Of a DNA stretch of 64,000 nt, positions 8,820 through 9,068 are shown piece after piece. The position numbers and the translations under genes are program-made. The notes below the pieces were generated by a model that was given only the letters and a program-made list of their open reading frames with translations, had not been told where the DNA came from and did no database searches. Numbering within the stretch: position 1 is the stretch's first letter; every line of letters begins with the position of its first letter. The stretch is from Escherichia coli (lineage in GTDB: Bacteria; Pseudomonadota; Gammaproteobacteria; Enterobacterales; Enterobacteriaceae), in NCBI RefSeq assembly GCF_030013595.1, contig NZ_CP122768.1, one strand, 5' to 3'.

Positions 8820-9068
8820 TTAGCTTAAAAGTATTTTTTCGATATATTCACTAACCTTTGAATTAACTCCTGATATATATTCATTATCTTTACCAGAGTA
8901 AAATTTTAAAGAACCTTCCAAATTATCATGAAGAACAAGAAGATCATAAGCAAGTAATTTTGGGATAAGCGAAGCACTTTGATAATCAGTCATTACTTTA
9001 TCAAGTGACATATATAGCCTATCAATTATGTTTGTATCTAAATCATCCGCTAATCTAATCATTTCCAC
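8820..9068 (-). CDS. Hypothetical 82-aa protein (orphan; AT-rich locus)
   Basis: ORF in conspicuously AT-rich DNA directly abutting the IS66 end. I recognise no family. The start is uncertain. Confidence 0.35.
   Translation of the reverse strand: MEMIRLADDLDTNIIDRLYMSLDKVMTDYQSASLIPKLLAYDLLVLHDNLEGSLKFYSGKDNEYISGVNSKVSEYIEKILLS

Follow-up and report, generated by a model that had tools for sequence, protein, structure and literature searches.

A 5'-truncated and probably non-functional remnant of a putative Rhs immunity gene at an ISCro1-associated deletion of the T6SS-1 island in Escherichia coli

The RhsF-CT domain of Chromobacterium violaceum, a toxin with the ART fold, ADP-ribosylates RNA in vitro; its residues R1403, Y1456 and E1497 are essential for toxicity and S1445 contributes (PMC13324451). 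Its immunity protein RhsFi (CV_1430) consists of six helices, and R102 and W103 on helix 6 plug the RhsF-CT active site (PMC13324451, PDB 9ZDM). The TreTu/TriTu and Tre23/Tri23 systems of Salmonella, Xenorhabdus and Photorhabdus similarly comprise a T6SS Rhs protein with a DPxGL motif, a C-terminal ART-fold toxin and a downstream immunity gene (PMC9825190, PMC8636562). Orphan rhs-CT/immunity modules, which are AT-rich and horizontally acquired, occupy the 3' ends of rhs loci (Poole et al. 2011, PMC3150448; Koskiniemi et al. 2014, PMC3967940), and loss of the T6SS in E. coli lineages through ~20-kb deletions or IS insertion has been documented (PMC10711316). Here we describe a small E. coli ORF at the edge of a T6SS island that is very probably the 3' remnant of an Rhs immunity gene, whose toxin and start were lost to an ISCro1-associated deletion and which is now most likely a non-functional pseudogene.

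The locus shares the position at the rhs 3' end, the AT-rich composition and the horizontal origin of the orphan rhs-CT/immunity modules. Unlike intact orphan modules, however, the module in the 64-kb stretch of DNA analysed here (the window) is broken: its toxin fragment is gone and its immunity gene is 5'-truncated. With the main rhs deleted as well, the module would therefore not be reactivated by recombination with it. As in the documented cases of T6SS loss, where the removal of about 20 to 27 kb of T6SS core and rhs genes or disruption by an IS inactivates the apparatus, the deletion here removed core and rhs genes together, but it differs from them in being bounded by ISCro1 without a target-site duplication (PMC10711316).

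The ORF closes the gene order fadE, ivy, yafV, symE-like gene, ORF, and its upstream end meets an insertion sequence (Table 1). The first-pass annotation had described it as AT-rich, unlike its flanks, and as beginning within about 10 bp of an IS66 terminus. Measurement agreed with both points: GC content over 8820-9077 is 27.9%, compared with 52.2% in the window, 54.6% in yafV and 55.2% in the IS, and 9 bp separate the GTG of the ORF from the IS end at 9078. The name given to the element was right at the family level, since three ORFs lie between imperfect 22-nt terminal inverted repeats beginning GTAAGCG (9078-9099 pairs with 11752-11773; the terminus at 9078 reads GTAAGCGACTCG...), but the precise name is ISCro1, as the element is 100% identical to the RefSeq-annotated ISCro1 of E. 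coli NZ_CM149870.1. A single copy of ISCro1 is present in the window. A second in-frame start, an ATG at 9062, corresponds to codon 18 of the intact gene described below. Because the reading frame stays open upstream of the GTG as far as the IS junction at 9077, the conserved coding sequence in the window reaches beyond the reported ORF start.

Table 1. Positions of the features discussed, in window coordinates unless a stretch of the comparator genome NZ_CM149870.1 (L001, L003) is named.
Feature	Position	Strand	Basis or remark
symE-family gene, convergent with the remnant	8540..8773	plus	Pfam SymE_toxin 41.3 bits; RefSeq annotation
Hairpin terminator, 14-bp stem	8781..8816		directly past the ORF stop codon; common to the convergent symE-like gene
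Stop codon of the remnant	8820-8822	minus	
ORF as listed mechanically, 82 aa, 82 codons	8820..9068	minus	GTG start is codon 16 of the intact gene
Putative immunity gene remnant, codons 13-97 of 97	8823..9077	minus	tblastn with the intact 97-aa protein, 100% identity, residues 13-97
8-bp IS flank on the ORF side, ACATCAAT	9070..9077		no match to the other flank
ISCro1 (IS66 family), 2696 bp, tnpA + tnpB + tnpC	9078..11773	minus	ORFs, inverted repeats, comparator identity
8-bp IS flank inside tssC, TATTCAGC	11774..11781		
tssC, 5' 154 codons, cut by the IS	11774..12237	minus	other deletion edge
Intact tssC	L003 26393..27907		comparator annotation
Intact 97-codon gene	L001 9391..9684		comparator ORF
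Aligned segment, ORF side	8361-9077		L003 1-717, 100%
Aligned segment, IS	9078-11773		ISCro1, 100%
Aligned segment, tssC side	11774-16362		L003 27444-32032, 99.98%

A megablast search of window positions 8430-9077 against 5,426 complete E. coli genomes matched the symE-like part in 786 of them and the AT-rich ORF part in only two, at 100% identity, both of them sister isolates from pig faeces. As comparator we used the near-identical E. coli HCP5S3_I2 (NZ_CM149870.1), which carries no IS at the ORF site. It is 100% identical to the window up to 9077, and beyond that point its ORF has 12 additional codons (MNDNNFDFNKTI), the first of them an ATG preceded at 5 nt by AGGT, a Shine-Dalgarno-like motif. 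The product of this 97-codon gene is the 'hypothetical protein' WP_052318335.1 (97 aa), which begins MNDNNFDFNKTI/IDVVEMIRL... (the slash marks the point of truncation in the window). The in-frame continuation that had been proposed as a check in a genome lacking the IS was thus found, and the 12 extra codons, ATG and upstream AGGT of the comparator uphold the suspicion that the rearrangement had removed the native promoter and the true N-terminus.

Ten nucleotides before the intact ATG lies the end of an orphan Rhs fragment of 379 codons, in which Rhs core repeats lead to the cleavage motif PNPLSYIDPLGL. Behind the motif comes a C-terminal domain of 130 aa, located at 4223263-4223655 on the minus strand of NZ_CM149870.1. 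The order is that of the classic toxin-tip/immunity arrangement. In the T6SS-1 island, which is located between yafV and aspV, a full-length rhs is followed by three orphan modules, and the toxin fragment and the gene behind it are the last of them, so the intact copy stands where the first-pass annotation had tentatively placed an orphan immunity gene, at the distal end of a T6SS/rhs island.

BLAST comparison of the window with 49.5 kb of the comparator (L003) revealed two collinear segments on either side of ISCro1. Absent from the window is L003 718-27443, a span of 26.7 kb as measured against this one comparator strain, from whose rhs array that of the true ancestor may have differed. The missing segment has one edge at codon 12 of the immunity gene and the other at codon 154 of tssC. 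On the rhs side it contains the cognate toxin fragment, two more orphan modules, the full-length rhs, a DcrB-like chaperone gene and vgrG; on the T6SS side it contains tagF, tssM, tlde1, tssL, tssK, tssJ, hcp, tae4/tai4 and the 3' two-thirds of tssC. The T6SS-1 of the window strain is inactivated.

The 8-bp flanks of the window ISCro1 are ACATCAAT and TATTCAGC, with no 8-bp target-site duplication, which indicates an IS-associated deletion rather than a simple insertion. The junction arose either by adjacent deletion or by recombination between two IS copies, and the missing duplication does not count against the identity of the element as ISCro1. No immunity::ISCro1 junction was found among the 5,426 complete E. 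coli genomes.

The comparator has an ISCro1 of its own, located in tagK (L003 34223-38361; the corresponding window site is 17217-17225), flanked on both sides by a perfect 8-bp duplication, CTTTATCA, and with an IS3-family element nested inside; a further IS3 copy adjoins tssH in that genome. Since the comparator ISCro1 sits in tagK while tagK is intact in the window, two close relatives have disabled or eroded one T6SS island by independent IS events. Within the T6SS region of the window, ARAGORN also called a 94-nt 'tRNA-His' (20613-20706, plus strand), an odd length for a tRNA that points to a false positive. The remaining tRNA calls (Asp at 23011-23087; Asp, Ala and Ile within 31233-34858) fit aspV and the rrnH operon.

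A word-indexed search detected 33 homologues of the protein in five genera; Proteus (97% identity, 797 contigs) is represented, as are Salmonella, Pectobacterium and Cronobacter. When 1.84 billion representatives were scanned exhaustively with HMMER, only 15 clusters at 50% identity were returned, all about 95-99 aa in length. Homologues were also present in metagenomes, including two metagenome lineages. A 57-aa annotated E. coli fragment (P0023) was set aside as a contig-end artefact of the same locus. Across five genera the homologues show dN/dS of 0.09-0.20, with dS up to >1, and are under purifying selection. Because the protein is conserved across genera under this selection, the sequence data identify the ORF as a genuine coding sequence. 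That the ORF is spurious, a frame open by chance in AT-rich intergenic DNA, might be suggested by its annotation as a mere 'hypothetical protein' and by the lack of Pfam, NCBIfam and PDB sequence matches, but at the local base composition a frame of 85 codons would stay open by chance with a probability of only ~3e-4, and the uniform length of the homologues, their substitution pattern and a confident fold prediction all speak against it. We rejected this reading on the conservation pattern and consider it scarcely credible.

The genomic context of eight distinct homologues was inspected, and in seven of them the gene follows, by 7-12 nt, an Rhs ORF that ends with DPxGL and a toxin tip of ~130 aa. 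These tips align end to end with the E. coli tip, and the tips examined match DUF7587 in Pfam. In the comparator and in these seven cases the gene is on the same strand as rhs and directly 3' of it, with the tip preceded by PxxxxDPxGL, and the immunity family was accompanied by a single toxin family. A full-length PAAR-Rhs protein of ~1,520-1,575 aa, encoded in a vgrG-DcrB-rhs operon, precedes the gene by 7-10 nt in Proteus (L004), Salmonella (L010) and Cronobacter (L016). The Rhs partner is an orphan or contig-cut fragment in Pectobacterium, in other Proteus loci and in the two metagenome lineages. The eighth homologue (P0035) belongs to a toxin-less cluster of small genes, one of them with a weak Imm26 match, that looks like an immunity island. 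Because the gene directly follows Rhs toxin tips of one family, the synteny supports an immunity role, and WP_052318335.1-like proteins are putative partners of DUF7587 ART-fold Rhs toxins. The first-pass annotation had asked that homologues be sought next to toxin genes and had named two outcomes that would speak against its proposal, homologues unlinked to toxins and an ORF without conservation; neither was observed, and the linkage extends to four other genera.

The gene has a GC content of 24-31% in every host. The toxin-immunity module as a whole is likewise AT-rich wherever it occurs, is frequent in Proteus mirabilis and was acquired horizontally. Diversification within the family can be seen in the comparator itself, where a second orphan module of the same rhs array (L001 10917-11655) has a DUF7587-like toxin tip (38% identity, E 6e-16) whose aromatic active-site residue is Tyr instead of Trp, together with a partner of 101 aa that is 27% identical to the 97-aa protein (E 1e-4). 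A diverged toxin is thus paired with a diverged immunity protein, and two diverged versions of one toxin-immunity family stand side by side in a single array. When the metagenome loci L020 and L022 are compared with L001, the toxin tips are ~70-75% identical (by eye) and the immunity proteins 33-36%; this higher conservation of the toxin could reflect diversification on the immunity side. A tblastn search found no DUF7587 toxin and no Rhs core in the 64-kb window.

The neighbour on the other side of the ORF is a symE-family gene, and a different partnership could be proposed from it, in which the ORF encodes a protein that acts on SymE, for example as antitoxin or regulator, and has no connection with Rhs toxins. 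The two genes adjoin each other, are convergent and share a terminator, and in Salmonella and Proteus, too, homologues have symE-like genes nearby. The same symE-like gene, however, has unrelated small ORFs as its neighbours in other E. coli strains (L002, L025), and homology between genomes, which includes 786 E. coli genomes, stops exactly at the ORF stop codon, at about window 8822-8837. Several homologues also lie 7-12 nt after a DUF7587 toxin with no symE nearby (L004, L014, L016, L020, L022). SymE is controlled by an antisense RNA, SymR, and not by a protein. We rejected the SymE partnership as very improbable, given that homologues pair with DUF7587 toxins and not consistently with symE.

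The symE-like segment itself occurs in up to 6-8 places per genome. At this locus the symE-like gene and a strong bidirectional terminator (together 8540-8816) face the last immunity gene of the rhs array in convergent orientation, and similar segments were found at L002 6084-6400, L025 4994-5330, L010 7698-7943 and 10513-10827, and L007 4793-4903. At the symE-like loci that we inspected, the adjoining orphan Rhs-CT/immunity modules are of unrelated types, one of them, in strain D6, being a Tox-ART-HYD1 module. The symE-like gene has the appearance of a conserved 3' boundary, or of an anchor for recombination, in rhs orphan arrays.

The toxin tip of the comparator passes the Pfam DUF7587 model (29.6 bits, cutoff 27) and matches one solved structure by sequence, RhsF-CT (PDB 9zdm_B, E 7e-5). 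In the HMMER alignment, R1403, S1445, Y1456 and E1497 of RhsF fall on R19, S58, W69 and E115 of the toxin tip, and these active-site positions are conserved in the toxin alignment, the third being W or Y. An AF2 model of toxin, linker and immunity protein reached pLDDT 84.3 and pTM 0.77, and its toxin domain gave Foldseek probability 1.00 to pertussis toxin S1, the CARDS toxin and the Rhs toxin TreTu (8s2n_B, TM 0.57). The tip thus combines the predicted fold with the Arg, Ser/Thr and Glu constellation of ART toxins. With both the RhsF-CT match and the Foldseek matches of the model in agreement, an ART fold of the cognate toxin is well supported. In overall plan the pair is like TreTu/TriTu and Tre23/Tri23; unlike those systems, the toxin belongs to DUF7587 and not to Tox-ART-HYD1, and the immunity protein has no fold match to any solved immunity chain. 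A survey of Salmonella SPI-6 effectors (PMC10469887) was set aside for a similar reason, as its Rhs toxins are Tox-ART-HYD1 and not of the DUF7587 family, and Rhs2-SciX and Tne5 were discarded as unrelated systems.

Neither the remnant nor the intact immunity protein has a meaningful match in Pfam or NCBIfam, the best hits (Cullin, Gag_p24_C, GST) being at chance level, and no PDB match was obtained by sequence or profile. AF2 with a 24-sequence alignment predicted a four-helix bundle (pLDDT 88.4, pTM 0.80) with helices at residues 6-21, 27-44, 52-68 and 74-96, for which fold searches returned only generic helical bundles and no solved immunity chain. R20 is invariant in the family alignment, and Y44, P51, K52, D63, N64, G67 and E92 are near-invariant; together these residues are candidates for the binding surface. 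A D/F-N motif near the N-terminus is also conserved in the family.

Like RhsFi, the protein is small (~100 aa), cytoplasmic and, as predicted here, all-helical, and its gene directly follows that of an Rhs toxin; homology also links the two toxins, whose R, S, aromatic and E active-site residues align. Because of this homology, a mechanism like that of RhsFi might be expected, with a 1:1 complex occluding the ART active site. In helix number the two immunity proteins would differ, AF2 predicting four here against the six of RhsFi. Similarity to RhsFi was absent at E<=10 by phmmer and by profile hmmsearch against all PDB chains including 9zdm, and none to any curated immunity family was detectable. 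The protein resembles RhsFi by position and partner, but its sequence does not place it in the RhsFi family. The family is without a name or experimental description, while an orphan Rhs immunity gene is a known kind of object.

We suggest the following history for the locus. The intact 97-aa protein, encoded by the last immunity gene of the T6SS-1 orphan rhs array, is predicted to be a small cytoplasmic four-helix bundle. By binding the DUF7587 ART-fold toxin domain of an Rhs effector it would occlude the active site and so shield the cell when sister cells or competitors deliver the DUF7587 toxin. The AT-rich toxin-immunity module was acquired horizontally, and the ISCro1-associated deletion then removed the toxin fragment, the rhs array, vgrG and most T6SS core genes, leaving a remnant to decay. 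What the remnant has lost is residues 1-12, the ATG, the AGGT motif and the operon that drove it. Initiation at GTG 9068 or ATG 9062 would drop 15-17 residues, including the D/F-N motif, and no Shine-Dalgarno-like sequence was found at a proper distance from either codon, nor was any sigma-70-like promoter predicted upstream of the remnant on the same strand. Because the start codon, ribosome-binding site, operon and most of helix 1 are lost, the remnant is probably a dead pseudogene.

The remnant could instead be functional, expressed by read-through from tnpC with a start at GTG 9068 or ATG 9062 and protecting a cell that no longer has a T6SS against DUF7587 Rhs toxins of, for example, Proteus or Salmonella. 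The remnant ORF is read in the same direction as tnpC, whose stop codon at 9108 precedes it by 40 nt, the remnant retains its own terminator and all the invariant and near-invariant residues, and the cognate toxin is common in Proteus mirabilis, with the immunity cluster on 797 contigs. Neither start codon has a usable Shine-Dalgarno, however, and 10-12 of the 16 residues of helix 1 are gone from a confidently predicted four-helix bundle, with the conserved motif in the lost N-terminal segment. The 100% identity to the intact copy also makes the event too recent for selection to be read from it. We consider a functional remnant unlikely. Less likely still is a broader proposal in which these proteins would found a new, DUF7587-specific immunity family unrelated to RhsFi, Arg20 would act as the plug, and a remnant transcribed from ISCro1 would remain residually protective against Proteus or Salmonella; if true, the IS would be 'rescuing' the expression of a trimmed defence gene. 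The pseudogene thus remains our preferred reading.

As ordinary gene decay, the finding matters little beyond annotation for the remnant itself. For the window strain it means that T6SS-1 is dead, with 26.7 kb of core, spike and effector genes missing relative to the comparator, and the locus is a clean case of IS-mediated erosion of an interbacterial weapon locus. For the family, WP_052318335.1 and its relatives can be assigned as putative partners of the uncharacterised ART-fold Rhs toxin family DUF7587, which is common to Proteus, Salmonella, Cronobacter, Pectobacterium and bee-gut bacteria, and this may offer a ready toxin-immunity pair for work on RNA- or protein-targeting ART effectors.
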